Origin: Naegleria gruberi
Lineage: Eukaryota
Reading direction: 5' to 3' (one strand)
Assembly (NCBI GenBank): GCA_000004985.1
Contig: GG738899.1
DNA length: 64,000 bases
Below, piece after piece: positions 11,209-47,428 of the stretch; position 1 is the first letter of the stretch; the number at the start of each line of letters is the position of its first letter. Under the pieces are notes generated by a model. The model did not search any database and was not told the origin of the DNA. It saw only the letters and a list, made by a program, of their open reading frames with translations. The position numbers and the translations under genes are program-made.

Positions 11209-13261
11209 ATGTCAGAAACCATCCACTTTGAATTTATCAACATTCCTGCCTCCGAAAAGGACCCATTCGTCATCAAAATTGGTGGAAATGAAGTTTATTC
11301 GTAAGTTTCCACCACTTTCTTCTAACATTTCCAATAGAGCTACCGAAACCTTGAAGGACACTAAATTTTCCCTCAAAATCTCACCATCCGGTCTATCTGC
11401 CATCCATCGTGAATTTATCAACTTTATAATTCCACAAGCAGACATTGATGAATTAAATCAATATGATTTAACTAATAAGGGATATTATCTGAAAGTTCGT
11501 GTAAAGAATTTGGGAGAATTATCAGTAACTCAGGGAGTGAATGCTGCTATGGATGAAGCTAATGTCATTGTTGATGATCAACGTAAATTCTATGTTGATG
11601 AAAAGACTGGAGAATATACCTAGTAAGTTTAGTTTTATTTCGGATAAAAATAATTTAACACTGGATTAATTACTTGATGATTTTGAAAAATTAGTAAATA
11701 TAACAAACCAGCCTATCTTGCAGATGATTATGAGAAAAGTCCAAAGAATAAGCTTACAAAGGCAGTTCACAATTCAGCAGACTTTGGAACTGATTCCACA
11801 CGTATCTGGCTTCACTTGTCAGGAATTGATGCCTCAGAAGAAGATCCTTTTGAAATCTTGGATGCTGATCAAAATGATAAGAGAATCATGCATACCACTA
11901 AACCAATCTTTAGAAAGAAGGAAATGATGATCTATGTCAAGAAGAATGATCCTCAAGCTAAAACACACATTGCTAATTTGCATATCAAGATTCCAAGTGT
12001 TGGTGTTGATACAGTTAGTGATTTTGATTTGACTACTTTGGGTACCCATATTTTGATTGCTGTTTTGTAAGTATTTAAATTACCATATTTGTTAATATTT
12101 ACAATATATATATGAACAAATACAAATATAAATGAAAAATATAGAAATGAAGGATCCAATGTTGAAATTCAACAAAGAACAAACAAAATGTTCGATGAAA
12201 AATACTTTAATCCAGTTCACTATGCAAATGCTGAACAAGAATACAAACAAAAAAATAGAGAAAAGTCACTTGTAAAATATGATGATGATTCCAATTCTGG
12301 ACCAGTTACTGAAACTCAAATGAGAGCAGGCGATTCTGATTCATTAGATGAAGTGACTCTTTCTTTATATGTTAATAATATTCCAGCTTCCAAAAAGGAA
12401 CCATTTACCATTTATATCAATGGTGATGAATTTTTCAAGAGTGAAGAAGAAATTCCACTCACAAGAACTACTGTATTGAGAGCTTCATTTGAAAAACCAC
12501 CACGTGGTGAGGAATTGGTCATTGAAGCTCGTTTCAATATTGAAGCTCGTGATGTTGACACCAAGCAACAATTTAACATTACCAAAAATGGTACATTCAT
12601 GTTCTTTGGTATCGAAAAAGTTGGAGACAGTGAACGTATCCAAATGAAACAACAACATAATGATACTTTTGGACCAAAATCTGGAGAAACTATGACTAAA
12701 TCAAGTGGTGCTTCTGCTAGCTCAAAGAGTTCAACTGAACAAATTCCAGTTTACTTCCATTTGGCTGGTATTAATGCTACTGAACAAAAACCATTCGAAA
12801 TTTATGTTAATGGTCAACAAATTTACAAGCAAACTCAAGATCTTGGAGATAGAATGGCCATTGTAACTGGAAGATTGCCAAATGTTGATGATTTGAGAGT
12901 TACTGTTAAGGCAGTTTCTCTCCTCGATGGTTTGGAAGAAGAATCTGAAGTTAACGTCTCCAAGTATGGTAATTACATCAAGTTGGAAGTTAGCAGTGAT
13001 CGTTCTGTTATTGACATTACTCAATCAAAGAATGCTGAATTTGACAATGCCACCATTGTTGATTCAAAGAAGATGCCAAAATCCATTCCAAAAGTTACTC
13101 CTTCCACTACCTCAACAACTACAACTGCAAAGCCAGCAGCATCAACAGGAGGAAGTGAAGATTATTTGGATGTTTTGAAAAAGTTGGGTGAATTGAGAAA
13201 GGCAGGTATTTTGACTGAAGAAGAATTCCAAGCAAAGAAGAAACAAGTTCTTGGTTTGTAA
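11209..13261 (+). CDS. four-exon gene encoding a protein with three related 'ASEKxPFxIxIxGxE' modules and a C-terminal SHOCT-like motif
   Basis: Exons 11209-11300, 11338-11622, 11695-12066 and 12145-13261 were deduced from GTAAGT donors (11301, 11623, 12067) and AG acceptors (11337, 11694, 12144), with frame continuity verified across each junction. The C-terminus 'DYLDVLKKLGELRKAGILTEEEFQAKKKQVLGL' fits the SHOCT consensus. Confidence 0.65.
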
Positions 13262-15266
13262 ATAAAGTAGAACCACATTCTTTGGATTTATTTTGCTTTG
13301 CAAATCGACTTGGCAGCTTGTCTGGTAAGGATAACAAGGATGGACACGAGAGAGCTTGTTTGACTTGTGGATCTTCCCTCAAGTGTTTTGGTGCATACAA
13401 GTAGGCAATTGGGGAGTAACTTTCCATACATTTCAATAAGAGATCCTTGTCAGATCTAACTCTTTCCGAAGCATAAATGTAAATGCTACTTTCTGAATTT
13501 TCAATCGCTGTCTTATCATCTCTCATCTTTGATGTAAATAAACGTGGATCAATATTACTCAAATCTGAAGGATATTCTTCTCTCAAAATATCAATTGGTA
13601 CCACTCCATAGTTCAACAAATCTGGATTCGATTTCAAAGCCGTAATCCAGAAAGTATTATCCTTACGAAGCTTACTACTCACTAGAACGCTTGTATATGC
13701 TGATATTTCAAGCAAATGCAACATAAACTCATCATCTTTCAAGTATTCTGCTGGGATGAAATTTTGTACTGCATTGTAATTCATAGCATAGTCAATATCA
13801 TCGTCTTCCATATTTCTCAGTATTTCCAAGATTTGATCCATTGTTAAGTTTAGTCCACTGACATATGCCAAAGCTTTTGGATTTGCTAATATTTTGACAT
13901 CATTCTTGAGAGAATCACCAATAAAAAGAGCACAATTTACATTGATATCAATGCATTCTAACATGAATTCCCTATTATTTCTCAATTCAGGAGAAGCAAT
14001 ACTTAAGAAAATTACATTTCTACGTGAGATTTCCTCAAGAATTACATCTCTATCCTCCAAATATTCATTAGTCTTGTAATTTCTATGGAAGTGTTCATTG
14101 ATAACTTCAACCATGAGTGTTAAATTGTTCAACAATTCTGGCTCTACTGATTCAATATCCAATGTAACCTGTAAGAACCTTAAAATGTCTTCCTTTGTCT
14201 TAATTTTGAAGCCAATTTCACCCAAACCTATAGTATAGACCCAGTGTTTAGCCACTTCTGGATCATTGATGAATTCTGTTTGAACACGATATGGATATAC
14301 TAAATAAGGGTAATGCTTCATTAATTTGATTGTAAACTCTTTATCCTTTCTTAAACTATGATGTAAGAAAAGGTGAGAACTATTGATATTGAACAAATTA
14401 AAGTAAGCATCCTTATCCTTTCTGATTTCTGTAGGAAAAAATGCTGGAATACGTTGAATAAAAGAATCTGGATCAGTTTCGAATAATTGTTTGACTGCTC
14501 CCAATATTTCTGGATCTCTTCTCAATTCAACACTGAGATATGGATAGAAATTAGCATGCACTTTCAAAAACTCGACAAGATCCTTCTTATCTCCTTCTTG
14601 CATAATTTTCACATACTTTTTCATGTTATCTATCATTTCTTCTTCTGGATAAACTTCATTACCAAGTAATGAAATTGGTTTGATTACATGAATTGGAATA
14701 CTCTCAATCCAATCTTTGATATGTCCAATGCATTTCAATGATGGGAACATTGTAGTACCTGTCTTTAAATAAAAGAAACCATTTCTCTTATCTAAAAGTG
14801 TCACTACTGTAGAGTACAAATGTCCTGTCTGAACCATTATCAAATTCTCTTGCCATTGATTTTCACCAAATTCACTGTCCAATAGCAAGGGAAAGGTTGA
14901 ACGTTCAGAGATTGGTGTTTCTACAACAAATTCCCAATCATCAACCGGGGCAATGGTAATTAAATTAGAGAAATGATATCTGCCACTTGCACAATTAGTC
15001 AACCAAACCTTCAAGTGAAATTGCATATTGGTAAAACCAAATTGATTAATTAAATTGGCTAATTGTTCATTGCTGAGTGCAGGAGAATCGTAATCATGGG
15101 CAAGTTCTTGGCAATATTTATGCCATTTGTCAATCAAGTCATTCTTCTCTTCTGTGTGATAAATTGCATCAAAGGTTGTGTTTATCAATCTGCTGTGTGC
15201 TCTGTCTATTGTTGAAAGGAATGGGAAAATCCTAACAACAACTTCTGGGATGTGGAAGATATTCAT
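13119..15266 (-). CDS. hypothetical protein with N-terminal F-box-like motif
   Basis: 715-aa ORF. N-terminus 'IPEVVVRIFPFLSTIDRAHSRLINTTF' is F-box-like. Its 3' end overlaps the 3' end of the convergent gene (13119-13261), so the true stop is uncertain. Confidence 0.55.
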   Translation of the reverse strand: MNIFHIPEVVVRIFPFLSTIDRAHSRLINTTFDAIYHTEEKNDLIDKWHKYCQELAHDYDSPALSNEQLANLINQFGFTNMQFHLKVWLTNCASGRYHFSNLITIAPVDDWEFVVETPISERSTFPLLLDSEFGENQWQENLIMVQTGHLYSTVVTLLDKRNGFFYLKTGTTMFPSLKCIGHIKDWIESIPIHVIKPISLLGNEVYPEEEMIDNMKKYVKIMQEGDKKDLVEFLKVHANFYPYLSVELRRDPEILGAVKQLFETDPDSFIQRIPAFFPTEIRKDKDAYFNLFNINSSHLFLHHSLRKDKEFTIKLMKHYPYLVYPYRVQTEFINDPEVAKHWVYTIGLGEIGFKIKTKEDILRFLQVTLDIESVEPELLNNLTLMVEVINEHFHRNYKTNEYLEDRDVILEEISRRNVIFLSIASPELRNNREFMLECIDINVNCALFIGDSLKNDVKILANPKALAYVSGLNLTMDQILEILRNMEDDDIDYAMNYNAVQNFIPAEYLKDDEFMLHLLEISAYTSVLVSSKLRKDNTFWITALKSNPDLLNYGVVPIDILREEYPSDLSNIDPRLFTSKMRDDKTAIENSESSIYIYASERVRSDKDLLLKCMESYSPIAYLYAPKHLREDPQVKQALSCPSLLSLPDKLPSRFAKQNKSKECGSTLFTNQELVSSLLGILLQSKYLPFSIHPTFSKHPNNLHFLLLMLLALQL

Positions 15267-15459: not shown

Positions 15460-18400
15460 TCAAATTCTCTCCACAATATTCTCAAGCAATTCATAAATCT
15501 TATTGAAAGAAGGCCTCTCTGAAGGATTGTGTTTCCAACATTCTGTCATTAAATTGATGAATAATTGCACGCATTCAATTGTATCATCATTAGTAAAGAG
15601 TTGAGTATTGGTAGTAATCCATTGATTAATCTCATCTCTATTCGAAACATCAAAGGGAAGGAGAGGTCTTTGGCCATTAATAACAAGTGGTGGAACTTTA
15701 AATGTGTTTTTCACATGTTGGAATGGAGTGGCTCTGAAAAACATTTCCCACATAATTATAGCAAATGAATAAACATCAATTTTGCTGGCTTCCTTATTCT
15801 CTATTTGTGTATCAGAAACAAATGTCTCAGGGCTGTAATTAATTGTTACATTATACTAAACTAACACGAAACTTACCTGCAGTATAAGATGGTACCTATT
15901 TGTTTAGTCATATTTGTTTGAACAGTGTTGCTAACGAGTTTCACAAGACCAAAATCTGAAACCTTTGCCTGATTCTTATCGTTTAGCAATACATTGCCAG
16001 GTTTCTAATAAAAAGATGAATAATACTTATAAATTGGAAAACCTACCAAATCTCTGTGAATAATCGCTGGTTTCAGTGAATGTAAATAAATCATGCCATT
16101 AGATATGTGAAGTAAAATTTTTAACACATTTTGGAAGTGTTGGTTTGTGAAATTGGAATATTTCGAATTGGAAATAAATCGATCCAATGCACCATTTTCC
16201 ATGTACTCTGTAACAATATACTTGCTCTTCTCAGTCATACATACTCCGTAAAATATTAACACGTTGGGATGTCTCAATCGACTCAAAACTGCAGCCTCCT
16301 TTTCAAACTCTTCATTGTTAATTGAACCTTCTGAGAAATCATACTTGAGGGATTTGATAGCAACATTAATATTTGACCATGAGCCGAGGAAAACATTAGC
16401 TGAACCACCTTCTCCTATCCTCTTTTCAATAGTGATTTCTTCGATTGGAATAATGAAGGAGTCGTCCTTTTGATATTTGGATGTTTTAGAGTTGCTTTTC
16501 ACTAATGATTGGGAAAGCTCTGTATCGTTAGTGAGAGATCTATACTTGGTACTACCTCCACTCGAACCATTGTCAATACTGGAAGCTTTATCATAGTATT
16601 GCTGTTCTTCTTCAGTAAATTCAAATAGCATTCTCTTGTCAATGAGTTTGTTTTCAATAGCTTGCTCTGCTCTTTCTTTTTTCTTCAATCTGTTTAATTT
16701 TTTGATGATCGTTACCATACAATACATTCCCAATCCAAGTAAAATACCCAGAATGAATAAAAAAAGAGAGGTTCCAATAATAATTGCAACGTATGTTTCT
16801 ACTGGAAATTCAGGAATTTTCTTACATTCAAAATTGAAAACATTAGCCTCTTGGGTCAGTGATTTATCTAATGCTGTTCCACTCTTACAATTTCCTATTT
16901 GAATTGGTAGTTCGATTGTGCTAAATCTATTTTCAATTATGATTCTTGTAGGTACTTTGAAATACTCATCCAAGGTTTCATTTCCAAAAACATTAATAGT
17001 GAATGTAATGTAATTCATATTGTTAGGCTGCTTGTTTGACAGTTTGATATAGGATGAAGATGAATAAAAATCAAAAATCTCATCAGAGAATGGTGCTATA
17101 GTTCCATCCTTGGTTGTTTTTACAATAAATGAAATATTGTATCTCTCTCCAATTAATAATTCATAATTTCCATTCACAATTTTTGGAGTTATTCCAGTGA
17201 ATTCTGCTGAGGATAATCGTAGAGGAATAGTATTATCCATTCCCATTACTGCTACATTTCCATTTAATGTACATCCACTTAAAGTTGGAAGGGTTGCCTG
17301 ATTGAAAAACATTGCCCCTCCACTCAGTCTTGCTGTATTATTTACAAACTGTGAATATTGGAAATTTAATTGATATGAACCAGTTGGAAAATAGATGGCA
17401 CCACCACGATCTGCATAATTTCCAATGAAATTTACGCCATTAAATTCGTATGGAGGAGTAAATTTGGCATCATTTACTGCGGACTCTATTGAAATGGCAC
17501 CACCTCCACAAAAAGCTCCATACCTAGACATTGGATACAAATTACAAGTAACTCTATTATTAATAAACTTGCTTCCCCTGATGAACAAATTAGCTGCCAA
17601 ATATTTCACACGAACAGCTGCTCCACTGAAAGTGGCTAGATTATTATAAAATTCGCAATAATCAATGAACAATCTTTGTACAGACTGAATCGTCACTGCT
17701 GAATCATATGAATTATAAAATTTTGAGTTTGAAAATAAAACTTGAGATCTGTAGCCATTGCCAGAAATGTCGTAAATGTCAAATTGTCTCCTCTGTGAAA
17801 ATTCACAATTTACAACAGAAAGCACCGAGTACGATTCCACGCGTACGTGAGCGAATCTATTATCAAGTTTGATATTTCTCAGTGTGGTATAAACAATTTC
17901 TTTAAAGATTAGAAACGCGCTCACAAGATCTTGAGATGGAATTGCGTTTCCTGTCATTGTAATATTCTCAAATATTGCATTTTGGAAAGAGGTAACAGAG
18001 GAAAATAACTTTCCTGAATAGACTCTAATATCCTTCACTATGATACTAGTTCCAGATTGTGCTAAAATGCTTAAAATAATACCTCCAAACTTTTGCAAAA
18101 CACCTTTGAGCTTAGTACTCTGGTTAATATCAGATGTCTCACAATTAGTAAATGTAACATAATTACAAGCAAATGTATGAACAACACTAAATATAGTTCT
18201 CTCCACATGAACTATACTCGATTCCTGAATATTGACCAGTGTTTTTGCAATACTATCCAAGATTATTACTTCGTCACATAAATAGAAAACAGAGACTAGA
18301 TCCAAGGTTGACCTATTAACTACTACCTTGTTTCTATAATTGACAACAATTGTTTCTGAAAAAAATGAATTTTCTACAATGAAATATCTAGATTTCAAAT

Positions 18401-19172
18401 TGGATTCCACTTGTCCAGGGGTATTGTTATCCATAATTCCTGAACCATTAAAATAACAATTCTCCACCAACACTGAAATGAATAAATCGAAAATAATAAT
18501 ATCATTCAGTACCAAATCGTGTAAATATAATGCTTCAAATCCATATGGAATTAGTAACCCTTTCGAAAATAATGGTAACGTCTGAACACATGTCAGAACA
18601 CTCGAACGTCCATCCAAGTGAGTGATTTCCATGAAGAATCTCACTAGTTCAAATTCTTCCATTTGATACCACTCTAGCCCACATAAAAAGGGTTCATTTC
18701 CAATAACAATAACTTTTAAAAGTACATTTCTCTCCACTGATTTCATATTTAAAAAATCGGAATAATCTCTATATAATGTCTCATTCAATGAATAGAAGAG
18801 TTGAGTAAATGCTACACATGGATTTTCCATAGAATGTCCACAATTCACATTTGTTGAAGAATTACCATTAATACCTCCCAAGTACAAGGTAATATTTACG
18901 GTCATTTCCATGGAAGAATTATTCGTTATCAATGACCAAAAGGCCTCCTTCGGCCTCTCCACAACCAAGGTTGGTTCACCATTACTTGTTGATGAAGAGG
19001 TGGTTGCTGTTGTTGTTGTTTGTATCATCATTGGTTCGTCCATATTCATATTCATATCAAGAGCATGTGAATTTATTGGTGTTGACAGCTGTATCAACAC
19101 CATCATAGCCAAAAGTAAGAGAAGTAATGAAGACCTTTCCAGAGAAGGAAAACGTAAGGGTTGTTCCTGCAT
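15460..19172 (-). CDS. receptor-like protein kinase: signal peptide, ~800-aa ectodomain with parallel beta-helix (PbH1 'GGAI/GGAM') repeats, one TM, and a TKL/tyrosine-kinase-like domain; 3 exons
   Basis: Exons 16037-19172, 15877-16004 and 15460-15832 (minus strand). Donors are GTAGGT and GTAAGT; acceptors TTAG and ACAG; frames verified. Kinase motifs: G-rich loop 'IGEGGSANVF', 'AIK', 'HRDLKPGNVLL', 'DFGL', and C-lobe '...DVYSFAIIMWE'. TM segment 'YVAIIIGTSLFLFILGILLGLGMYCMV'. Confidence 0.8.
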
Positions 19173-26087: not shown

Positions 26088-29000
26088 ATGACAGAAAAGT
26101 GTAAAACCTATGAGAGAGATGGTCAATGTAATAACGAAAATTGTACACTGATTCATCAGACGTGTCCAAAATTTAGATCACGAGAAGGATGCTCCGAAGG
26201 TTCTTCCTGTCCATTGATTCACAATAGAAAGGTCTTTCAGAAAGATTGCCCTCGTGGTGAGTCATGTAATCAAGGATTGGCATGTAAATATTTCCATCGG
26301 AGAAGTGTTAATTTCACACAACAACAACAAAAACCTCCACTGCAACAACAACATTCTAATCATCAATTTAGGGAGAGAACCAAAGCAAATGAAAGTTCAT
26401 CAAATTTCAATGAAAAGAGAAAGTTTGAAAGAGATTATGATAGACGATCAAATAGAAAATTGGATCAAGTAGAAATTACCAGTAGCAGTAGTAATAGTAG
26501 TAATAGTACTAATTTCGGAAACGTTGATACAGAGGGAGATTATATTATGAAAGAAAATTCCTCTACATCTTTTAATGTGGAAGAAGAAATTGAAATTGTG
26601 GAGGATGTGAAGAAAATTGATTTGCTTCCGAACTCTACTACTAATAACCTATTTGTGTTGAAGGTGGATAAAAGAGATATTTCCGATGAATCTGCAAAGC
26701 TGCTAGGAGATGAAAAATCCATGATACTAATGGTGGAACAAGTAAATGCAGAGTTTGATAAAAAGAAGGAAGAATTGACAAGAAAATTATTAGATATGGT
26801 TGATGATAGAGAAGAACTTGCCACAGAAGGACCAATTATTAGAAATGAACGTAAACTATTGGAGAAACAACAAGCAAATTTCCAGAGACAAGTTCAGCAA
26901 ATTTTTTCACTCAAAGACCAGTATCCACTCTCTACAATTTTACATGCACTCTATAGAGAATGCTGCCGAGGAATGAAGAGCCTTCCTTTGTATGCATTTA
27001 GATCTGATATTATTGCAAGTTTACAAAATAATAATGTCATTATTTGTATTGGTGAAACAGGCTCTGGTAAATCTACACAAATTCCTCAATACATTCTCGA
27101 GGAAGGATATGGAAGATTTGGTAAAGTAGTGTGTACAGAACCTAGAGCAGTTGCTGCAATGTCTCTTACAAAGAGAATTTCTCAGGAAATGTCCATTAAG
27201 GAAAATAGTCTAGTGAGCCATAATTTATATGGAAAGGTTAATAACTGGTCCGATTTACTATTCATGACTGATAGAAAGTTATTGAATGAATTTCAAAATG
27301 ATGCTCTACTCTCAAAATATTCAGTTATCATTGTCGATGAAGCTCACGAAAGAAATCTATGTTCCGACATTCTAATTTCACTATTGAAGGAATGTGTAAT
27401 CAAGAGAAGTCAATCAACAACTCTAAATCCACTCAAATTAATTATAACTTCAGCAACTATTGATGAAAATCTATTTTCAACATTCTTTAATAATTGTCCA
27501 GTTATTAAAGCTCCTGGAAGAATGTATCCAGTGGATGTTTATTGGACTAAACAAAGAAAAGAAGATTACGAACAAGCAGCTGTTCAAAAAGTGTTAGAGA
27601 TTATTTCAAACAACAAATTGGAAGGTGACATTTTGGTATTTCTAAGCTCACCAGACGAAATTGATAGATGTATTAAGAAATTAGAATTTCACTCAAGGGA
27701 AAACAGAGCTCTTTCTCGCTGTTTGATTCTTCCACTCCATGGAGCACTCACGCCTGAAGAACAAGAAAGAGTATTCGAAAGAGTAAATTCTAGAAGAATA
27801 ATCTTTTCAACACGTATTGCTGAAAACTCTGTCACTATTGATGGTGTGAAAATCATTGTGGACACTGGTGTTTCACGAGAAAAATTCTACGATCAACAGA
27901 GAAACATGTCTATTCTCAAAGTGAATAATATTAGTCAAAGTTCTGCCATTCAGAGAAAGGGAAGAGCTGGTAGAACTTCATCAGGTGTATGTTTCAGATT
28001 ATTTTCCGAACAAGACTTCTCCTCAATGAGTGTAAATCCAACTCCAGAAATTTTGAATTCTAATTTAGGATTGACTTTATTGAGATTATTTTCAGCTGGT
28101 GTGAAAAATGTATTGGAATTTGATCTAATTGAAAAACCTAATCTGGAGGATATGAAGAAATCTCTCAAGAATTTAACCGACTTGCAATTTGTGGATGAGA
28201 AGCAAAACATTACACAAATGGGTAAGCAAGCTTCCAAGATGGAAATTGAACCTTCTCTTGCAAGAATGATAATTGAGGGAATTAATTTAGGAATTGGAGA
28301 TGAAATTATTCAACTAGTGTCCATTATGTCATTCTCCAACATGATCTATGCAAAATCTAAGTCTACAGATTATTTAGAAAAAGATATTATGAAAGTCTCA
28401 ACTTCAAAGGAAGGTGGTGATCTGATAACACTTCTTCACATCTTCCAAGGATTTCTTCAAGCAAAAGATAAGCGAAGATATGCAAAAGATGGAAATTTCA
28501 GTCTGAAAACATTGATCCAAGCAGAAGAAACCATGACAGATATTAGGAAGAGATTGAATTTTGAAAGATCTAGCAATAGTGAATCAAAAACAGTTGAATC
28601 CATTCAAGAAATAATTACCAGATGTGTTTGTTGTAGCATGTTTGATAATTTTGCCTATTTTCATGGCATTATTAATGGAAAGAGAGTTTACAAAATTCTC
28701 TCATCAAATATGGAAGCTTTTATTCATGGTTCATCATTTTCTAATTATTCAAGCGAGCCAATTGACTATGTAATATATGGAGAATTAGTCAAGACGGAGA
28801 AACTATTTATGAAAAATGTAACTCCTATTTCTTTAGAGTCAATCAAACCATTCATTACTTTCAATCAATCTCTAAATGTTGTAAAGAAGAAAGTGATATA
28901 TCCACTCACCAGAGGAATATTCGATTGTTTAAATGCCAATAACGGAGCATTGTTAGAATATTTAAGATTGAATATTGGATCAATTGTTGAAATGGACCCA

Positions 29001-31100
29001 GATAGAAACGAACTCGTTGTATATTTATCTGAAGGAGATCAAGTCGAAACAATCCTCAAATATGTTTATGATACAGCTGTTCAAAGATCAAATAATGAAT
29101 TCCTCGAACATCAAGTTGATTCAAAAGTAAGAGCCCTGATTGGAAGAGGAATGCAAGTTGTCAAATTACTTTTTCCAGGAGAGTTTGTAAAATGCAATAT
29201 TCTTAATATCCCAAATATGGATTATAATCACATGAGGGAAGTATTCGAGATGCATAATCTTCCAATACTCGATTGCAAACTATTCTTTGAATTGCCATCC
29301 AATAGGTATGGGACTGTAATTTTTGATTCTCCACAAACATCCAAGAAAGCTCGTGAATTATTTTCTGATTGTCAAGAGTTTCGTATAACCACAAGTGATT
29401 CAACAATAGTTCCAGAAGAAAAAGAAATGAAAAACTATCCACTCAACATTTATTTCTACTCTGAGCACGATGGTAAATGTTTCATCTATTCAGATAACGC
29501 CAATGCCCTAAACATTATTCAATCTCAGTACCTTTATGGTCAAAAGATGTTCCGTAATATTGAAAAGAAAAACCTAAAAATTGCAAACTTATCCTTCACA
29601 CTTGATGAGCACAGAATTAGAGATTTCATTCCAAGAGAACTTCATAACGATATCAGGATAGTTATGAATAGAGATAGACTTGGTAAGGAACAAGAAAATC
29701 AATTTGTTAAAAAGATGGTCAACACTATTAGACCAATGATGGAACTTTTTGGAGAATTGGAAATGTTTGAGTATGTTCCAACCAAAGACCTTGTAGGACA
29801 GTACAAGATATTGGCCAAGTTTACCAACTTGGAAAGTACAATGACAGCAATGAAAAGTTTAAATGGAGCTAGCGTCGGTGACAAGTTTATTTGGGTGGAA
29901 CCTGAATTTACGGACATCATACCATTCCCACTTGATTTGGACACTGATAATTTATTTAGAGAAGAGTTAAGGAAAATGATGAAGGAAATTTTTTCTGTTT
30001 ATGGATGCAGGTCTGGAATGTTTGAAATGAAGAATGGAAGACAAAAGGCTTTGAAAGTTAGAGCAAATTCAGAAGAAGGACTTACTAGAGCAATGGCTAT
30101 CGCTCACAAATATCTAAAGCCATATGTTCTAAAATTGGGAGTATTCGATTTCTCTATTGCATTCAAGAAAAAGTTTAGAATTCTTGAATTGACCAAAAAC
30201 TTCAAAGCTTATATTGACTTTGATATTAAGAATAATAATGTCAATATTTATCAACTCGGAATTAATCAAATGAAAGATATTGTCACTACTATTCTACAAG
30301 AAATTAGAAATTCCAATAAGGACATTATCAAGTTAACTCAATTGAAACCAATTATTGGAAATCAAGGAAAAGTTTTAAAATCTCTGCAAGAAAAATATGG
30401 AGGAAGAATTGATTTTGATTACAAACAAAAAATTATTTCTATTAACAGTTCAGATCAAGAGGAAATCAATAATTTTAAACAGGAAATTAGAAATATATTA
30501 GAAAGCCACCAAACTACCAACGAAGAAATATCTCCAGAAGACTGTCCAATCTGTTATGGACCAAAAGAGAATCCAGTTCTCTTATCGTGTGGCCATTCAC
30601 TTTGTAGAGATTGTTTTATATGTCAACTTGATCAAATGACATTTAATTGTTGTGAATGTGACAGTTTGCTAACCATTCCAGAAATCAATCTTTCTCAGGA
30701 TTTGAATTTAATTGAAAAACAAGCTCAGTATGCCGTTGAAAAATATCTTGAAAGACATCCAAATGATTTTAAACACTGTTCATCAGCTCATTGTTCTGGA
30801 ATTGTCTGCATTGATCAAAGTCAAGTAGCTCACTGTCAATCCTGTAACAAAACTTATTGTATCAAGTGTAATGAACCTCCACACCCTGGATTGGATTGTT
30901 CTAATGAGGAAGAAGCTCTAATCATTGAGTGGAAGAAGGCCAACACAAAACCATGTCCAAAATGTAAAAATAATATTGAGAAGAATGGAGGATGCAATCA
31001 CATAACTTGCTATTATTGTGGAGCTCACTTTTGTTGGTTGTGTGGATTTTTGGCCAATGGGGCTGTTGGTGTTTATACACATTTACAAACGTGTAGATAA
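26088..31100 (+). CDS. CCCH zinc-finger – DEAH-box RNA helicase – RBR (RING1-IBR-RING2) E3 ubiquitin-ligase fusion protein (plant DEAH11/12-like architecture)
   Basis: 1670-aa ORF. N-terminal C-x-C-x-H fingers. Helicase motifs 'GETGSGKSTQIPQ', 'VIIVDEAHERN', 'STRIAENSVTIDGV', 'QRKGRAGR'. C-terminal 'CPICYG..CGHSLCRDCF' (RING1), IBR, and 'CPKCKNNIEKNGGCNHITCYYCGAHFCWLCG' (RING2 catalytic Cys). Confidence 0.85.
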   Translation: MTEKCKTYERDGQCNNENCTLIHQTCPKFRSREGCSEGSSCPLIHNRKVFQKDCPRGESCNQGLACKYFHRRSVNFTQQQQKPPLQQQHSNHQFRERTKANESSSNFNEKRKFERDYDRRSNRKLDQVEITSSSSNSSNSTNFGNVDTEGDYIMKENSSTSFNVEEEIEIVEDVKKIDLLPNSTTNNLFVLKVDKRDISDESAKLLGDEKSMILMVEQVNAEFDKKKEELTRKLLDMVDDREELATEGPIIRNERKLLEKQQANFQRQVQQIFSLKDQYPLSTILHALYRECCRGMKSLPLYAFRSDIIASLQNNNVIICIGETGSGKSTQIPQYILEEGYGRFGKVVCTEPRAVAAMSLTKRISQEMSIKENSLVSHNLYGKVNNWSDLLFMTDRKLLNEFQNDALLSKYSVIIVDEAHERNLCSDILISLLKECVIKRSQSTTLNPLKLIITSATIDENLFSTFFNNCPVIKAPGRMYPVDVYWTKQRKEDYEQAAVQKVLEIISNNKLEGDILVFLSSPDEIDRCIKKLEFHSRENRALSRCLILPLHGALTPEEQERVFERVNSRRIIFSTRIAENSVTIDGVKIIVDTGVSREKFYDQQRNMSILKVNNISQSSAIQRKGRAGRTSSGVCFRLFSEQDFSSMSVNPTPEILNSNLGLTLLRLFSAGVKNVLEFDLIEKPNLEDMKKSLKNLTDLQFVDEKQNITQMGKQASKMEIEPSLARMIIEGINLGIGDEIIQLVSIMSFSNMIYAKSKSTDYLEKDIMKVSTSKEGGDLITLLHIFQGFLQAKDKRRYAKDGNFSLKTLIQAEETMTDIRKRLNFERSSNSESKTVESIQEIITRCVCCSMFDNFAYFHGIINGKRVYKILSSNMEAFIHGSSFSNYSSEPIDYVIYGELVKTEKLFMKNVTPISLESIKPFITFNQSLNVVKKKVIYPLTRGIFDCLNANNGALLEYLRLNIGSIVEMDPDRNELVVYLSEGDQVETILKYVYDTAVQRSNNEFLEHQVDSKVRALIGRGMQVVKLLFPGEFVKCNILNIPNMDYNHMREVFEMHNLPILDCKLFFELPSNRYGTVIFDSPQTSKKARELFSDCQEFRITTSDSTIVPEEKEMKNYPLNIYFYSEHDGKCFIYSDNANALNIIQSQYLYGQKMFRNIEKKNLKIANLSFTLDEHRIRDFIPRELHNDIRIVMNRDRLGKEQENQFVKKMVNTIRPMMELFGELEMFEYVPTKDLVGQYKILAKFTNLESTMTAMKSLNGASVGDKFIWVEPEFTDIIPFPLDLDTDNLFREELRKMMKEIFSVYGCRSGMFEMKNGRQKALKVRANSEEGLTRAMAIAHKYLKPYVLKLGVFDFSIAFKKKFRILELTKNFKAYIDFDIKNNNVNIYQLGINQMKDIVTTILQEIRNSNKDIIKLTQLKPIIGNQGKVLKSLQEKYGGRIDFDYKQKIISINSSDQEEINNFKQEIRNILESHQTTNEEISPEDCPICYGPKENPVLLSCGHSLCRDCFICQLDQMTFNCCECDSLLTIPEINLSQDLNLIEKQAQYAVEKYLERHPNDFKHCSSAHCSGIVCIDQSQVAHCQSCNKTYCIKCNEPPHPGLDCSNEEEALIIEWKKANTKPCPKCKNNIEKNGGCNHITCYYCGAHFCWLCGFLANGAVGVYTHLQTCR

Positions 31101-31154
31101 CCATATTTGCCAAATAGATCAAGTAGTAGAATTGAATAGTACTTAGAATAAAAC

Positions 31155-32264
31155 TTATTGATTGTTTAATAATGGGATGTGAAAAACTAAATCTTTCGAA
31201 TAAGGAATTACAGTGTCCTCCTTCTTGATGATATAACCTAATTGATTGGAGACCAGAACTGTTTTTCCATCTGTAACTCGAGGGTTGTCCAAATATAAAA
31301 AGGAATTTCGGTGAGTGTGTCCAAAACCCCAGAACGAAATATTTGAATGTTGTTTGATTATGTGATCCAAGTTTGTAGCCATACCACTTGCAAGAAACAT
31401 TTCATCTTCAAGAACAGTTCCATTAATGAATGGAGAATGATGTGTAAGAACAGCAATAGTTTCTTCTGGATGTTTTTCACATTCCTTTCTAATATATTCA
31501 ACCAACCTTTCGTGCATTTCAATGGTTTCGGATATTGTTACACATTTCTCAGAGTTGGTTTTAATTCTTCTATAATCATTCATTGAGTATTCGACTTTCG
31601 ATCTTTCTTTCAATGGTACATTTGTCCATAATGTCCCACCAACAAATCTAATTCGTTTCCCACTTTCATTTTCATATACGAAACTACTCTTGTTCAAAAA
31701 CACAAGATTATCCTTCTTTTTACAAATATCCATAATCCTCTGATCAGTTTCCGATATAATATTCCTATAATATTCATGATTTCCAGTAACAATAAACACA
31801 ATCTTGAATTTTTCAGCTTGCTCCATCACGAATTGTTCATATTCCAAACTAAACGGATCACCAATATCACCCAATAACCCTAAAACCTCACCTTTTGCTT
31901 CTATGATATTCGTTTCTCGACTAATTTTTCCATCCTCCTCTGCAACATTACTGATTAAAGCCTTTACTTGAGGAAATTCTAAATGAACATCGGAAGCAAG
32001 TTGAATGGTTAGATAATTTTCCAAATTGTTAGGATTTATTTGTACAGGATCAAATGATGGAAGCAGCAATTCCAAAGTTGCACCAGAATCTTCAATAGCT
32101 TCACTCGATTCTGCTTGTCCCATTTTTTTTTGATTTTTTTGTAAATTAATGGATTCTAATTGGAAGGTTTCATTGTAAGCTGCATCATGTGAGTGGATAA
32201 AACCCAACAATATCAACAATCCTATTGACAAACTTTCCATCGATATCATATTGTTCCAAACCAT
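31155..32264 (-). CDS. secreted calcineurin-like metallophosphoesterase
   Basis: Predicted signal peptide 'MVWNNMISMESLSIGLLILLGFIHSHDA' starts at the ATG at 32264. MPP motifs 'SDVHLE', 'GDIGD', 'VTGNHEYY', 'LTHHSP', 'GFGHTHR'. Confidence 0.75.
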   Translation of the reverse strand: MVWNNMISMESLSIGLLILLGFIHSHDAAYNETFQLESINLQKNQKKMGQAESSEAIEDSGATLELLLPSFDPVQINPNNLENYLTIQLASDVHLEFPQVKALISNVAEEDGKISRETNIIEAKGEVLGLLGDIGDPFSLEYEQFVMEQAEKFKIVFIVTGNHEYYRNIISETDQRIMDICKKKDNLVFLNKSSFVYENESGKRIRFVGGTLWTNVPLKERSKVEYSMNDYRRIKTNSEKCVTISETIEMHERLVEYIRKECEKHPEETIAVLTHHSPFINGTVLEDEMFLASGMATNLDHIIKQHSNISFWGFGHTHRNSFLYLDNPRVTDGKTVLVSNQLGYIIKKEDTVIPYSKDLVFHIPLLNNQ

Positions 32265-33044: not shown

Positions 33045-34172
33045 ATGTCGCAAGAATATTCAGCGATCGTGCTAGATAATGGCTCTTGCTCCATCAAAGC
33101 AGGTTTTTCAGGATGTGAGAATCCACAAGTAGTTTTTCCATCACTCATTGCTTCTCCTTTAAAATCCAAAGAATCTGAAAATATCAAAGAAATATACCTT
33201 GTGGGAGATGAAGCTAAAATTGACAGTAGAAAGAATGTTATGGTCAGATATCCAATAGAACATGGAGTAGTGACGAATTGGGAGGGGATGGAACAGATTT
33301 GGCGTCATGTTTTTAGTCAATTACAGGTGGATTGTGAAAATCATCCTGTTTTATTGACTCAACCTCCTTGTAATCCAAAACAAAATAGAGAAAAGATGAC
33401 TGAAATAATGTTCGAAACATTTAGAATACCATCCATGTATGTTTCTATTCCTGCTGTATTGTCCTTGTTTGCAACTGGGAGGACAACTGGAATAGTTTTA
33501 GATTCTGGAGATGGTGCGACGAATATTGTTCCAATTTTTGAATCACATGCTTTAGAATATGCTGTTAGGAGATTGGATTGGGCAGGTCGTGATTTGGATT
33601 ATTATATGTCTAGAATTCTAAGTGAAAGAGGGTTCTCATTCTTTACACGAGAGGAAATGGACATTGTGAGGGAAATTAAGGAAAAACTGTGTTATGTTGC
33701 ATTGGATTTTGATAAAGAAATGGAAAATACATCAAATAGCTTGGATGTTGATTATGAATTACCAGATGGTAACATTCTCACGATAGGAAATGAAAGGTTT
33801 CGATGCCCAGAAGTGTTTTTCAAACCACACTTAATAGGAATTGAAGAACAAGGCATTCATGAGGTGATAATTAATTCAATTGGAAAGTGTGATGTGGATA
33901 TAGGACATTTGAACTTGTATGGGAATGTAGTTCTTTCAGGAGGATCCACAATGTTTACAGGAATTGGAAAGAGGCTACAAAAGGAATTATCTGAACTAGC
34001 TCCTTACTCTATGAAAATTTCGGTTGTTGATTCCCTAGGGTTTGATAGGAAATTTTTGTCATGGATTGGAGGTAGTATCCTATCATCAATGACTGCATTT
34101 CAATCTGATTGGATAGTATCAAGAGAATATAAAGAAGTTGGAAGTAGCATCGTTCACAGAAAGTGTTTCTAA
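33045..34172 (+). CDS. actin-family protein (divergent actin / actin-related protein)
   Basis: 375-aa ORF that aligns end to end with actin ('[17 protein letters not shown]', '[24 protein letters not shown]', '[16 protein letters not shown]', '[19 protein letters not shown]', '[13 protein letters not shown]') but carries many substitutions. Confidence 0.85.
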
Positions 34173-41748: not shown

Positions 41749-41867
41749 GGCTACGGCCATATCACGATTCATGCACCTCATCCCGTCCGATTTGAGAAGT
41801 TAAGCATCGTCGAGCCACATCAGTACTGAGGTTGGAGACAACTTGGGAACCTGTGGTGCTGTAGTCT
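41749..41867 (+). rRNA. 5S ribosomal RNA gene (copy A)
   Basis: GGCTACGGCCATA...CCGTCCGATTTGAGAAGTTAAGC...GGTTGGAGACAACTTGGGAACCTGTGGTGCTGTAGTC aligns position by position with eukaryotic 5S rRNA. Helix I pairs 5' GGCTACGGC with 3' GCTGTAGTC. A T6 run follows immediately. Confidence 0.9.
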
Positions 41868-41873: not shown

Positions 41874-41971
41874 TTTTTTCTCTATTTCTATTTTTCTGTG
41901 ATATAAAGCACCTTAATTAATATCAGTTGTGGACTAGATCTATTAGCAACTTATTTTCTTCTTGAATAACT

Positions 41972-42043
41972 TCCCGTGTAGTCCAATGGCTAGGATACCT
42001 GGCTTTCACCCAGGAGGTCCGGGTTCAATTCCCGGCATGGGAG
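41972..42043 (+). tRNA. tRNA-Glu (anticodon TTC), copy 1
   Basis: TCCCGTGTAGTCCAATGGCTAGGATACCTGGCTTTCACCCAGGAGGTCCGGGTTCAATTCCCGGCATGGGAG: 7-bp acceptor stem, anticodon loop CTTTCAC, T-arm GGTTCAATTCC. Confidence 0.9.
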
Positions 42044-42117
42044 GATAATTTTGCAAAAGATAATTTATTTGGTAACCTTTTATTAATGGAAAGGGTTATT
42101 GAAATGGAACAGTTGAC

Positions 42118-43115: not shown

Positions 43116-45680
43116 ATGGTCAAGTTCAGTAAAGAAATACTCGAAAGGCTCTTACTCGACAGTAACAAGATTCGTAACATTAGTATTATTGCTCACGTTG
43201 ATCATGGTAAATCAACACTCACTGATCAATTGGCTTTAGCAGCTGGTTTAGTGGATGAAGATGCTGCAGGTGAGAAGAGAGTTTGCGACGTCGATAAGAA
43301 TGAAATTGAAAAGGGTATTACCATTAAATCAACAAGTTTGAGTATGGTATTGGAAAATCCAGACAAGGAGAATGATCATCATTTGGTTAATTTGATCGAT
43401 TGTCCAGGTCACATTGATTTCTCATCTGAAGTTAGTACAGCTTTGAGAATTACTGATGGTGCAGTGTTGATTGTTGATGCTGCTGAAGGTTGTAGAGGTC
43501 AAACTGAAACAGTAATTAGACAATCTCTTCAAGAAAGAATTCGTCCAGTTCTCTTCATTAATAAGGTTGACCGTTTGATTGAAGAAATGCAATTTACTGA
43601 AGAAGAAAGTTATCAAAACTTTTTAAGAATTATCGAGTCTGTGAATGCTCTATTATCAACTTATTCTGATGAGTCAGTTTCTGTTGATCCAGTTGACTGT
43701 AACATTGCTTTTGGATCAGGTAAGATGGGTTGGGCTTTCACTTTGGAGCAATTCGCTCAATTATATAGCAAGAAGTTTAAACTTCCTGTTGAGAAGGTTA
43801 TTAACAAATTATGGGGTGAAAATTATTATGATCACTCAACTAAGAAGTTTACCACTGAACCTTATTCATCGACAAGTGGTCAACAATTGAAACACACTTT
43901 CTGTGAATTCATTTTAGAACCTATTTTCAAGATTTTCAAGTTGGTTAGAGAACATCAAATTTCGAGTGAAGGTATTTTGCCAACAGATTTGGAAAATATC
44001 ATTAGTGCATTGTCTATACCTCTGACGAAAGAAGAAAAGAGAAAGGAGCCGAAACTTTTAGCTAAATCAATCATGAGAAAGTTCCTACCAGCTCACAAAC
44101 CTCTAGTTCAAATGATTATTAACCATTTACCTTCTCCTAAGGAAGCTAAAAAGGTCAGGTATGATAATCTCTACACTGGTGAAGATTTGACAGATCCATA
44201 CGCTACTGGTATTAAGGAATGTGATCCGAATGCACCACTGGTTGTCTATGTCAGTAAGATGGTACCTATGCACTCTAATACTAGCTCTAGTATGAGTAAT
44301 AATGTTGGTCGTTTTATTGCTTTAGCTCGTATCTTCTCTGGCAGTTTGACTCAATCAACTAAGGTAAGAATTCTGGGTCCTAACTATGATCCAATTGCTA
44401 AGAAAGATGTTTTCCATACAAGCATTCAAAGATTGTTAGTCATGGTTGGTAAAAATACTGAAAGCATCACTCAAGCTTCTTGTGGTGCCATCGTCGGTAT
44501 TGTTGGTCTTGACAAGTACATTATCAAATCATGTACATTGACAGAAGAAGGACAAGTTGCATGTATGCCAATTAAGAATATGAAATACTCTGTGAGTCCT
44601 GTTGTTCAAATGGGAGTTGAGCCAGCCAATCCAGCTGATTTATCTCGATTTGTTGAAGGTTTGAAACGTCTCGTTCAAAGTGATCCTCTATTGGAATGTA
44701 AGCAAAATGATAGTGGTCAACATATTCTAGGAACAGCAGGTGAATTGCATTTGGAAATTTGTTTAAAGAATTTGGAAGAAGAATATGCAAGAGGAATTCA
44801 AATTAAAAAGTCTCCTCCTGTTGTCACTTTCCACGAAACAGTTTCAAATAAGAATGGAGACATGGTCATGGCCAGAAGTGCAAACGGTCACAATCGTTTA
44901 TACATGCAAGCTGAACCAATCAGTGAGGAATTGATTGAAATGATTAAGGAAGGTCAATTGCCAATGGATGATCAAAATAAGAGAGCAAAGATTTTAGAAA
45001 TTGACTTTGAATGGGATCCTAGCATAACAAAGAGAATTTGGAGTTTTGGACCTGAAGCTGATAAGGGTAGTAACATTTTGGTTAATGCAACCAAGTCAGT
45101 TGACTATATTAATGAAATTCAACAATATGTTGTCACTAGTTTCCAACAAAGCAGTTCTTCAGGAGGTTTATGTGATGAAGCAATGAGAGGTGTTTTATTC
45201 AAATTTAATGATTGTAATCTTCATGCAGATTCTATCCATCGTGGAGCTGGTCAAATTCTCCAAGCAACATCACGTGTCATGACTGCTAGTCAATTGAGAG
45301 CTGATCCAAAGTTAGTTGAACCAATGTATCTTGTTGAAGTTCAATGTCCTCAATCAGTGATGGGTTCTGTCTATAGTGTCATTTCCAATAGAAGAGGTGT
45401 TATCAAATCTACTGAAATGGTAATTGGTACTCCTCTCGTTAGTATTACAGGTAATTTACCTGTGCTGGAAAGTTTCGGTTTAACAGAAGAGTTGAGAGGT
45501 GTGACTCAAGGACAAGCTTTCCCTCAATGCAGTTTCAGTCATTGGAAAGTAATGGAAGACAATGTTTATGATCCTCAATCTAAAGTTCACAAGCTCATCA
45601 AATCTATCAGAAAGAGAAAGGGTCTTAAGGAAGATATACCACTCTACACAGATTACTGTGATGCAATGCCTAAACAATAA
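43116..45680 (+). CDS. elongation factor 2 family GTPase, divergent eEF2 paralog
   Basis: 854-aa intron-less ORF. G-motifs 'AHVDHGKST', 'DCPGHIDFSSEVSTALRITDG', 'NKVDR'. The diphthamide-loop 'HADSIHRGAGQI' and C-terminus '...SIRKRKGLKEDIPLYTDYCD' match eEF2, but the overall sequence is much more diverged than canonical eEF2. Confidence 0.8.
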   Translation: MVKFSKEILERLLLDSNKIRNISIIAHVDHGKSTLTDQLALAAGLVDEDAAGEKRVCDVDKNEIEKGITIKSTSLSMVLENPDKENDHHLVNLIDCPGHIDFSSEVSTALRITDGAVLIVDAAEGCRGQTETVIRQSLQERIRPVLFINKVDRLIEEMQFTEEESYQNFLRIIESVNALLSTYSDESVSVDPVDCNIAFGSGKMGWAFTLEQFAQLYSKKFKLPVEKVINKLWGENYYDHSTKKFTTEPYSSTSGQQLKHTFCEFILEPIFKIFKLVREHQISSEGILPTDLENIISALSIPLTKEEKRKEPKLLAKSIMRKFLPAHKPLVQMIINHLPSPKEAKKVRYDNLYTGEDLTDPYATGIKECDPNAPLVVYVSKMVPMHSNTSSSMSNNVGRFIALARIFSGSLTQSTKVRILGPNYDPIAKKDVFHTSIQRLLVMVGKNTESITQASCGAIVGIVGLDKYIIKSCTLTEEGQVACMPIKNMKYSVSPVVQMGVEPANPADLSRFVEGLKRLVQSDPLLECKQNDSGQHILGTAGELHLEICLKNLEEEYARGIQIKKSPPVVTFHETVSNKNGDMVMARSANGHNRLYMQAEPISEELIEMIKEGQLPMDDQNKRAKILEIDFEWDPSITKRIWSFGPEADKGSNILVNATKSVDYINEIQQYVVTSFQQSSSSGGLCDEAMRGVLFKFNDCNLHADSIHRGAGQILQATSRVMTASQLRADPKLVEPMYLVEVQCPQSVMGSVYSVISNRRGVIKSTEMVIGTPLVSITGNLPVLESFGLTEELRGVTQGQAFPQCSFSHWKVMEDNVYDPQSKVHKLIKSIRKRKGLKEDIPLYTDYCDAMPKQ

Positions 45681-47421: not shown

Positions 47422-47428
47422 TTTTTTT
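47422..47428 (+). terminator. Pol III oligo-T terminator of 5S copy B
   Basis: TTTTTTT directly after the 5S 3' end. Confidence 0.7.

Follow-up and report, generated by a model that had tools for sequence, protein, structure and literature searches.

The Naegleria gruberi open reading frame (ORF) located at positions 26088 to 31100 of the window, the 64,000-nucleotide stretch of contig GG738899.1 analyzed here, is a real, intact protein-coding gene. Sequence comparison places its product, as a divergent member, in the Helicase/Plant I (DEAH11/DEAH12-like) subfamily of RBR ubiquitin ligases. The domains are arranged in the order three CCCH patterns, spacer, RecA1, RecA2, winged helix (WH), ratchet, OB fold, RRM-type region, three KH-type domains, and RING1-IBR-RING2. 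One gene encoding an RBR ligase coupled to an RNA helicase best explains this arrangement, and we regard this reading as probable.

The ORF starts with an ATG, is preceded by an in-frame stop 21 codons upstream, and comprises 1,670 codons free of stops, versus 83 to 183 stops in each of the five other frames of the same interval. The probability of 1,670 codons without a stop, computed from base composition, is ~1e-61. The single intron-less ORF described in an earlier note on this DNA was therefore found as proposed. The same note had raised the possibility of frameshifts, given the length of the ORF. An independent copy, 99% identical and carried by an ENA metagenome contig (L001/P0001), keeps the frame throughout. 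The two copies differ by 22 synonymous and 13 nonsynonymous codons and by indels of 3 and 9 nucleotides, both in-frame and both located in the low-complexity spacer. This pattern argues against frameshifts and points to purifying selection on the ORF. No N. gruberi protein with at least 90% identity was found among 15 billion sequences, so the public N. gruberi protein set seems to lack this gene model. A scan for bacterial promoters and terminators, which is irrelevant to a eukaryote, revealed no enrichment.

Table. Features of the N. gruberi helicase-RBR gene; positions refer to the window and residues to the 1,670-residue product.
Feature	Residues	Positions	Strand	Basis
Complete CDS with stop codon, no intron needed	1-1670	26088..31100	+	ORF reading, ATG start
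Three tandem CCCH-type zinc-finger patterns	5-70	26100..26297	+	Regular expression and shuffle test
Low-complexity S/N/Q/K/E-rich spacer	71-215	26298..26732	+	Sequence reading; no Pfam match
Helical N-terminal helicase extension	216-296	26733..26975	+	Family consensus alignment
RecA1	297-480	26976..27527	+	Pfam DEAD (35.4 bits), motifs, PDB alignments
Motif I, GETGSGKS	322	27051-27074	+	Motif search
Motif II, DEAH	417	27336-27347	+	Motif search
RecA2	499-660	27582..28067	+	Pfam Helicase_C (49.5 bits)
Motif V, TRIAENSVTI	575	27810-27839	+	Comparison across 25 family members
Motif VI, QRKGRAGR	622	27951-27974	+	Motif search
Winged helix and ratchet (HA2)	692-782	28161..28433	+	HA2_C, Prp22/Prp43 alignment
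OB fold of DEAH/RHA helicases	843-919	28614..28844	+	OB_NTP_bind (44.5 bits, above cut-off)
Small alpha/beta domain at linker start (predicted)	933-1002	28884..29093	+	AlphaFold model m34343c567c50, fragment elements 13-82
RRM-type RNA-binding domains (predicted)	1006-1272	29103..29903	+	Counterparts in plant members
Three KH-type domains (predicted)	1274-1343, 1344-1410, 1411-1475	29907..30512	+	KH_1, boundaries, predicted structure
RING1, C3HC4	1486-1524	30543..30659	+	ARIH2 alignment, invariant ligands
IBR	1544-1604	30717..30899	+	Pfam IBR (46.4 bits versus 24.3 cut-off)
RING2/Rcat	1617-1670	30936..31097	+	IBR_1 (38.5 bits), IBR_2 (35.8 bits)
Catalytic Cys, TGC codon	1636	30993-30995	+	GGCNH aligned to ARIH2 GGCNHM

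A complete DEAH/RHA helicase, as first proposed, occupies residues 297 to 920. The Pfam models DEAD (residues 307 to 462), Helicase_C (residues 499 to 630), HA2_C (27.6 bits, residues 721 to 782), and OB_NTP_bind scored above their cut-offs, HA2_N (17.3 bits) scored below, and motifs I, Ia (TEPR), Ib (TDR), II, III (SAT, residue 455), and VI are canonical. About 620 residues (297 to 916) aligned to the solved structures of Prp22, Prp43, and DHX8 at E~1e-114. The extension that precedes RecA1 is conserved in the family and runs into a RECxR...LPxYA motif, and the PDB alignments begin at residues 259 to 297. The core and the WH-ratchet-OB region are alignable with those of Prp22/DHX8, Prp43/DHX15, and Prp16/DHX38, and 3'-to-5' translocation on single-stranded RNA would be expected (PMC6486627). 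Unlike the N. gruberi protein, these helicases, which serve in the spliceosome and in ribosome biogenesis, are devoid of an E3 module, and they rely on G-patch activators. We know of no G-patch partner for the helicase-RBR family.

The C-terminal residues 1486 to 1670 form a complete RING1-IBR-RING2 module that aligned to ARIH2 at E=1.3e-16. The invariant residues of RING1 in a 45-sequence family alignment are C1486, C1489, C1501, H1503, C1509, C1521, and C1524; Pfam RING models, including zf-RING_UBOX, gave only subthreshold matches to this domain, which is presumed to be the docking site for E2~ubiquitin. In the IBR, the eight zinc ligands C1564, C1569, C1583, C1586, C1591, C1594, H1599, and C1604 are invariant in the same alignment. 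The models IBR_1 and IBR_2 exceeded their cut-offs on residues 1617 to 1653 of RING2, whose ligands C1623, C1626, and C1652 are likewise invariant, with C1641, C1644, and C1649 conserved in at least 90% of the sequences. The proposed catalytic cysteine aligned to that of ARIH2 and was identified as Cys1636, found in 45 of 45 sequences; His1638 is present in the N. gruberi protein. ARIH2 and ARIH1/HHARI (7od1 and 4kbl) are the best RBR matches among solved structures (E=1e-16), share the GGCNH loop, and are presumed to share the thioester mechanism. The N. gruberi protein is outside the Ariadne subfamily; it has neither the Ariadne auto-inhibitory domain nor an acidic/UBA-like N terminus, and shows no sign of depending on a cullin. 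The qualifier "Parkin-type" used in the earlier note holds for the chemistry but not for membership in the Parkin subfamily, since the Pfam search returned no Ubl or RING0 match and Parkin aligned over RING2 alone.

Motif V carries two substitutions (N576R and T580N in the comparison of 25 members) relative to TN.AETS.TI, a consensus that is near-invariant in the family, and these changes could alter the grip on RNA or the coupling to ATP hydrolysis. The core has also drifted in relatives, with a DDAH rather than a DEAH motif II in Willaertia magna and an N. gruberi paralogue (EFC43245.1/D2VJ97, 1,145 residues) whose gene model is devoid of the RecA core, and RBR ligases, such as Parkin, HHARI, and HOIP, are typically auto-inhibited. 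The protein could accordingly be a pseudo-enzyme, with a helicase that clamps RNA without translocating or an RBR that is permanently auto-inhibited, acting as a multivalent RNA-binding scaffold. We consider this unlikely, though more probable than the other alternatives. Motifs I, II, III, and VI are intact, and motif V retains Thr575 and Ser581, whose equivalents contact RNA and act as a sensor, respectively (PMC6486627). The position of the Asn-to-Arg change varies in active helicases and is occupied by Ile in Drosophila DHX36 (PMC6486627). Cys1636 and the zinc ligands of the RBR are preserved, as detailed above, and the strain comparison points to purifying selection. The conserved residues suggest instead that the protein would have ATPase and helicase activity and that its RBR would act as an E3 by thioester transfer.

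The helicase and RBR modules are connected by a linker of about 550 residues (921 to 1475), not described in the earlier note, for which domains of RRM type and three of KH type are predicted. The AlphaFold model of the linker has a mean pLDDT of 80.9 and displays RRM folds as well as the RBR fold; the small alpha/beta domain at its start has pLDDT values of about 60 to 81. Residues 1006 to 1272 are the probable counterparts of the RBD_DEAH11 and RRM_DEAH11 domains of plant members plus an extra beta-alpha-beta-beta-alpha-beta unit. Pfam KH_1 scored 25.8 bits, above cut-off, on residues 1422 to 1468, the boundaries of the KH-type domains agree with those of KH_DEAH11_1st, KH_DEAH11_2nd, and KH_DEAH11 in plant and scallop members, and their predicted secondary structure is beta-alpha-alpha-beta-beta-alpha-like. 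Since the DEAH11-specific Pfam models of the linker fell below threshold on the N. gruberi protein (10.2 bits versus 27 for KH_DEAH11), homology of this region rests on the full-length alignment and on predicted structure. The linker is predicted to be a folded RRM/KH region and not a spacer.

Tandem CCCH fingers had been proposed at the N terminus. As a pattern, they are confirmed: three were found (C-x8-C-x4-C-x3-H at residues 5 to 23, C-x8-C-x5-C-x3-H at residues 26 to 45, and C-x5-C-x5-C-x3-H at residues 54 to 70), which take up all nine Cys and all three His of residues 1 to 75, and three such patterns were obtained in none of 100,000 composition-preserving shuffles. As a domain, they are probable, the Pfam profile cut-offs not being reached (17.1 bits versus 20.5 for zf-CCCH and 9 to 14 bits versus 21 to 30 for the other CCCH models). 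A profile built from the fingers and their heterolobosean homologues matched exclusively CCCH-finger proteins in the PDB, the best being Nab2, CPSF4, ZC3H12A, TTP, and Roquin at marginal E values of 0.003 to 0.1, and weaker matches, up to E=7, were to CCCH-finger proteins as well. The AlphaFold model of this segment, based on a five-sequence alignment, was unusable (mean pLDDT of 46). Of the 285 proteins fetched, just three showed N-terminal CCCH patterns, and all three are relatives from the heterolobosean clade (P0277/P0132 of N. fowleri and P0129 of a protist). The spacer that follows the fingers is probably disordered, judging from its composition.

The mechanism that we propose for the helicase-coupled RBR ligase is derived from the established behavior of the component families. 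The CCCH, RRM, and KH modules would bind single-stranded RNA in a ribonucleoprotein, and the DEAH core would thread this RNA through its tunnel and translocate 3' to 5' at the expense of ATP. RING1 would recruit E2~ubiquitin, and ubiquitin would be transferred to Cys1636 of RING2 as a thioester and then to a protein located on or beside the bound RNA. Engagement of the RNA would thereby set the site, and possibly the timing, of ligase action. We infer the coupling of helicase and E3, as well as all substrates, from these parts by analogy, and "helicase-coupled ubiquitylation" is in this sense an extrapolation.

The earlier note had suggested a role in RNA surveillance or translation quality control; in this narrower version of the scheme, the E3 would act on stalled ribosomes or aberrant mRNPs. 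The evidence in its favor is circumstantial: many modules for binding single-stranded RNA are combined with an E3, and the CCCH profile is nearest to the poly(A)- and mRNA 3'-end-binding fingers of Nab2 and CPSF4. There is also a functional analogue, ZNFX1, in which RNA binding and helicase activity are combined with a ubiquitin ligase in one polypeptide that converts RNA sensing into ubiquitin signaling (bioRxiv 10.1101/2025.10.14.682297). ZNFX1 is not a homologue, since its helicase belongs to SF1 rather than to the SF2 DEAH group and its E3 is of the RZ-finger/Miz-like type rather than an RBR. Against a surveillance function, the N. gruberi protein bears no likeness to known ribosome-quality-control ligases, no ribosome-binding domain was found in the Pfam search, and the sole functional report that we found on a family member describes repression of a transcription factor by the cotton RNA helicase GbDEAH12, without E3 biochemistry (PMC13407882). 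We hold this assignment to be unlikely, slightly more so than the scaffold.

A further reading, which we regard as a long shot, is that the RBR of the family ubiquitylates RNA itself, perhaps in addition to proteins, for example at a ribose hydroxyl of an RNA end that the DEAH motor would deliver to RING2. HOIL-1 is an ester-forming RBR that acts on sugars, and ligases of the DTX type act on nucleic acid ends. The one pointer to such an activity in the family is the unusually dense set of RNA-binding modules packed against the RBR. If this were true, the Nab2/CPSF4-like CCCH fingers of the Naegleria clade would steer the activity to poly(A) and 3'-end regions.

Assignment of the helicase-RBR protein to the Helicase/Plant I subfamily was based on comparisons that include full-length, collinear homology to more than 100 DEAH11/12-like proteins. 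The link to plant DEAH11/DEAH12 made in the earlier note was borne out, as the best full-length matches are DEAH11/12-like proteins, collinear over 83 to 91% of the query. Its description of the architecture as rare elsewhere was not: Pfam helicase and IBR domains occur together in 114 of the 120 best matches, which come from angiosperms, gymnosperms, a fern, liverworts, molluscs, echinoderms, and a spider, and further members were found in a coral, W. magna, and N. fowleri. Nor is the source organism an amoebozoan, as had been implied by the proposal to look for orthologues in "other Amoebozoa"; N. gruberi belongs to the Heterolobosea (Discoba). An exhaustive search with the linker and RBR alone (residues 921 to 1670) returned end-to-end matches from W. 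magna, N. fowleri, and others at E=1e-43 to 6e-55.

Arabidopsis DEAH11 and DEAH12 (At4g01020 and At5g10370) and soybean GmHELRP1/2 have the same domain order as the N. gruberi protein (PMC2904391, PMC3904995), as do the homologues from molluscs, echinoderms, the spider, and the coral, and all are of similar size (about 1,600 to 1,750 residues). Plant and animal members share with it the N-terminal helical extension, the DEAH/RHA helicase together with its WH, ratchet, and OB domains, an RRM/KH linker (predicted in the N. gruberi protein) of about 550 to 750 residues, and the C-terminal RBR with its invariant catalytic Cys. The N. gruberi protein differs from them by its low identity (23 to 26%, and about 24% for plants), its altered motif V, its subthreshold scores with the DEAH11 linker models, and its N-terminal CCCH pattern, which the fetched plant and animal members do not have. 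The heterolobosean relatives comprise N. fowleri FDP41_008854 (XP_044557319.1, 1,834 residues), W. magna KAL9658444.1 (1,592 residues), which has no CCCH pattern, and the N. gruberi paralogue mentioned above. They fall in the same tree cluster and are collinear with the N. gruberi protein over the linker and RBR at 22 to 33% identity, indicating that they are paralogues or fast-evolving orthologues.

This collinearity also bears on the origin of the ORF. Chance or an assembly error could have joined adjacent helicase and RBR genes, or, as the earlier note envisaged, the two parts could be separate transcripts. We found nothing in favor of this, consider it highly improbable, and have rejected it: the 5 kb are free of stops, the same frame is continuous in the ENA copy, the helicase-linker-RBR junctions are spanned by alignments to plant, animal, and heterolobosean homologues with the same domain order, and a folded linker is predicted. 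A recent horizontal acquisition from a plant or an animal, evoked by the title "DEAH12, chloroplastic-like" of the best named matches, has a negligible probability and was likewise rejected, since the protein has lower identity to plant and animal members than to W. magna and N. fowleri (30 to 33%), a neighbor-joining tree (without bootstrap) groups the heterolobosean sequences with one another and apart from plants and animals, and the GC content of the gene (0.32 to 0.34) equals that of its flanks.

The literature search retrieved no published E3 biochemistry for any helicase-RBR family member, no helicase biochemistry for a DEAH-RBR protein, and nothing specific on a Naegleria RBR. A Boechera FAS4 preprint was discarded from the family literature, as it deals with a different helicase (At1g33390) and "RBR" stands there for retinoblastoma-related. 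The architecture is not a new category, since the Helicase/Plant I subfamily is recognized (PMC2904391, PMC3904995) and had been described as ancient by 2010, and Pfam contains dedicated DEAH11 domain models; the present result is a sound annotation and not a discovery. It provides N. gruberi with a correct gene model and the ancient helicase-RBR family with a representative from Discoba. The compact, intron-less, CCCH-bearing heterolobosean variant may also offer a convenient construct for asking whether RNA binding or translocation gates an RBR ligase. The neighbors of the gene at this locus encode actin, RhoGAP, and RGS proteins.

The earlier note had read the target gene as a single intron-less open reading frame (ORF), and this observation was confirmed. 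The frame contains no internal stop codon over 26088..31100, the remaining five frames containing 83 to 183 stops each, and the probability of 1670 codons without a stop, computed from base composition, is ~1e-61. An in-frame stop is located 21 codons upstream of the ATG, and 186 bp lie between the ATG and the end of the preceding Kelch-propeller gene. Downstream, a convergent metallophosphoesterase ORF ends ~54-55 bp past the target stop (31101-31157). Since only ~54 bp separate the two convergent stops, the 3' untranslated regions of these genes must be very short or overlapping. An AATAAA hexamer is present between them at about 31147-31152.

The exact 1670-residue product was absent from a collection of 15 billion protein sequences, and a word-based protein search returned no N. 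gruberi entry (NCBI or UniProt) at 90% identity or more, matching only an ORF of an ENA metagenome. The gene may therefore be missing from the public reference gene set, and the target provides a corrected N. gruberi gene model. Metagenome contig L001 (7501 bp; ENA ERZ929261, run ERR1078381, project PRJEB11402), which encodes protein P0001, is 99% identical to the locus across 7.4 kb, including the upstream Kelch gene. The reading frame is maintained in L001, with 22 synonymous versus 13 non-synonymous codon differences and two indels (3 and 9 nt), both inside a low-complexity spacer, the final few codons being an artefact of the contig end. This pattern indicates purifying selection on the gene, and the conserved frame removes the concern that its length might result from frameshifts. 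Based on the 99% identity, another N. gruberi strain was present in the environmental or host-associated sample from which L001 originates.

Features of the window and their coordinates
Feature	Position	Strand	Description
Target ORF	26088..31100	+	ATG start, 1670 codons plus stop
Actin ORF	33045..34172		
EF-2 ORF	43116..45680		
Small-RNA cluster around EF-2	41749-41867, 47304-47422, 46392-46620, 41971-42044, 50166-50237, 46020-46100		Two dispersed 5S rRNA genes, U3 snoRNA, two tRNA-Glu(TTC), tRNA-Leu(CAA)
DUF4116-repeat protein	13119-15266	-	
1055-aa protein	16005-19172	-	Right-handed beta-helix region, then C-terminal kinase domain

The predicted DEAH/RHA helicase was recovered by four Pfam models (DEAD, Helicase_C, HA2_C, and OB_NTP_bind), all over their cut-offs, and residues 297 to 916 were alignable to Prp22, Prp43, DHX8, Prp16, and Prp2 (E = 1e-102 to 1e-114). 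Motifs I (GETGSGKS), Ia, Ib, II (DEAH), III (SAT), and VI (QRKGRAGR) are canonical. Motif V (window 27810-27839) reads TRIAENSVTI, versus TN.AETS.TI in nearly all of the 22 other family members compared. In the Prp22 and Prp43 structures, the first and seventh residues of this motif are a strictly conserved RNA-contacting Thr and a "sensor" Ser, and the second position (Asn) is variable among active helicases (PMC6486627). Because both residues are retained (Thr575 and Ser581) and the second position tolerates variation, the helicase is expected, with a caveat, to be an active ATPase. The corresponding motif V site is AEMS in N. fowleri, and motif II is DDAH in Willaertia; the helicase cores of the heterolobosean members seem to be drifting.

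The C-terminal module was detected by Pfam IBR (46.4 bits), with RING2 matched by both IBR_1 and IBR_2. The full RING1-IBR-RING2 region aligned with ARIH2 (E = 1.3e-16), placing Cys1636, in GGCNH, opposite GGCNHM of ARIH2. In a 45-sequence family alignment, Cys1636 is invariant, as are the zinc ligands of RING1 (C1486, C1489, C1501, H1503, C1509, C1521, and C1524), the IBR (C1564, C1569, C1583, C1586, C1591, C1594, H1599, and C1604), and RING2 (C1623, C1626, and C1652); RING2 residues C1641, C1644, and C1649 are retained in at least 90% of the sequences.

Residues 921 to 1475, overlooked in the earlier note, are not a spacer but a domain-bearing region. AlphaFold modeling of residues 921 to 1670, with the 45-sequence alignment as input, gave a mean pLDDT of 80.9, and KH_1 was over its cut-off at residues 1422 to 1468. 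When the Pfam boundaries of RBD_DEAH11, RRM_DEAH11, KH_DEAH11_1st, KH_DEAH11_2nd, and KH_DEAH11 in a scallop homologue and in DEAH12 of oil palm were carried over to the target, they coincided with the predicted domain boundaries. RRM_1 was above threshold in the linkers of heterolobosean relatives.

Whole-protein searches returned DEAH11/DEAH12-like proteins, as the earlier note had anticipated; the note was right on family and chemistry, wrong on rarity and taxon. Helicase and IBR Pfam domains were found together in 114 of the 120 best matches (counted from the table of matches), in proteins of 1.5 to 2.7 kaa, many spanning 83 to 91% of the query. On the plant side these came from angiosperms, liverworts, one fern, and one gymnosperm; the animal sources were bivalves, gastropods, sea stars, a crinoid, and a spider, and many others were encoded on eukaryotic metagenome contigs. 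The architecture is therefore not rare outside plants: "Helicase/Plant I" had been defined as one of three RBR subfamilies common to unikonts and bikonts, frequently lost and with a DEAD/DEAH helicase as its hallmark (Marin, PMC2904391), and a soybean survey reported the identical layout (PMC3904995). Among plants, Marin found the subfamily in angiosperms only, foreseeing that this might change (PMC2904391); full-length proteins from Marchantia, Riccia, Adiantum, and Cryptomeria are among the listed matches. The host is not an amoebozoan but the heterolobosean amoeboflagellate N. gruberi (Discoba), since the EF-2 and actin ORFs are identical to its proteins EFC39469.1 and EFC39465.1, respectively, which share one 331-kb scaffold.

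An exhaustive HMMER search with residues 921 to 1670 alone gave end-to-end matches (E = 1e-43 to 6e-55) in Willaertia magna (KAL9658444.1), Naegleria fowleri (FDP41_008854), N. gruberi (EFC43245.1), and further protists. EFC43245.1 (P0131; UniProt D2VJ97, "RBR-type E3 ubiquitin transferase") is a paralogue of the target, located on another scaffold; in its 1145 residues, the RBR and RRM/KH linker are accompanied by an OB-fold end. The RecA core is absent from this gene model, which is either truncated or a helicase-less derivative. Heterolobosean sequences clustered separately from plants and animals in a neighbour-joining tree (no bootstrap), and identity to the target was 30 to 33% inside this clade and 23 to 26% outside. 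These results disfavour horizontal transfer and fit vertical descent. The target is a new, divergent member of a family already on record, to which a CCCH module specific to its lineage has been added.

The claim of N-terminal CCCH fingers stood in part. Residues 5 to 70 contain three tandem C-x5-8-C-x4-5-C-x3-H patterns, which take up all Cys and His of residues 1 to 75 and occurred in 0 of 100,000 composition-preserving shuffles, but curated CCCH profiles remained below threshold (zf-CCCH, 17.1 versus 20.5 bits). The AlphaFold model of the segment was of too low quality for use. A PDB search with a profile of the target and heterolobosean fingers retrieved CCCH-finger proteins only: Nab2, CPSF4, ZC3H12A, TTP, and Roquin (E = 0.003 to 0.1) and, more weakly (up to E = 7), M2-1, Yth1, and others. 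The fingers are probably real. Among 285 family and neighbouring proteins fetched, only four entries besides the query carry such patterns at the N terminus: its twin P0001, N. fowleri P0132 and P0277, and protist protein P0129. This restricted distribution makes the module look like a heterolobosean-clade accessory added to an older helicase-RBR architecture. The longer of the two N. fowleri models has four fingers.

RBR ligases transfer ubiquitin from a RING1-bound E2 to the RING2 cysteine and then to the substrate. DEAH/RHA helicases move 3'->5' on single-stranded RNA by one nucleotide per ATP (PMC6486627). Combining both activities, the most likely model is that the helicase tunnel, together with the CCCH, RRM, and KH modules, would engage RNA in a ribonucleoprotein, ATP-driven translocation would position or remodel the complex, and a protein on or near the bound RNA would be ubiquitylated via Cys1636. 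The residues required at each step are present and conserved. RNA surveillance or translation quality control, the role previously proposed, is one among several possible contexts. ZNFX1 is a functional precedent for coupled helicase and E3 activity, although its sequence is unrelated. The only functional report on helicase-RBR members found in the literature search concerns cotton DEAH12, which represses a NAC transcription factor, in a study without an E3 assay (PMC13407882). The target is a compact candidate for first biochemistry on these ligases.

Elsewhere in the window, the kinase domain of the 1055-residue protein is seemingly cut near profile position 125 of 260, which suggests an intron or split ORF. 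The distance from one of the 5S rRNA genes to a downstream tRNA-Glu(TTC) is 104 bp. GC content is uniform (0.31-0.37), except that the first kilobase reaches 0.43 and the stretch at 57-58 kb 0.40. Runs of N, marking assembly gaps, occur in the first 7 kb (235-284, 3973-4022, and 6797).
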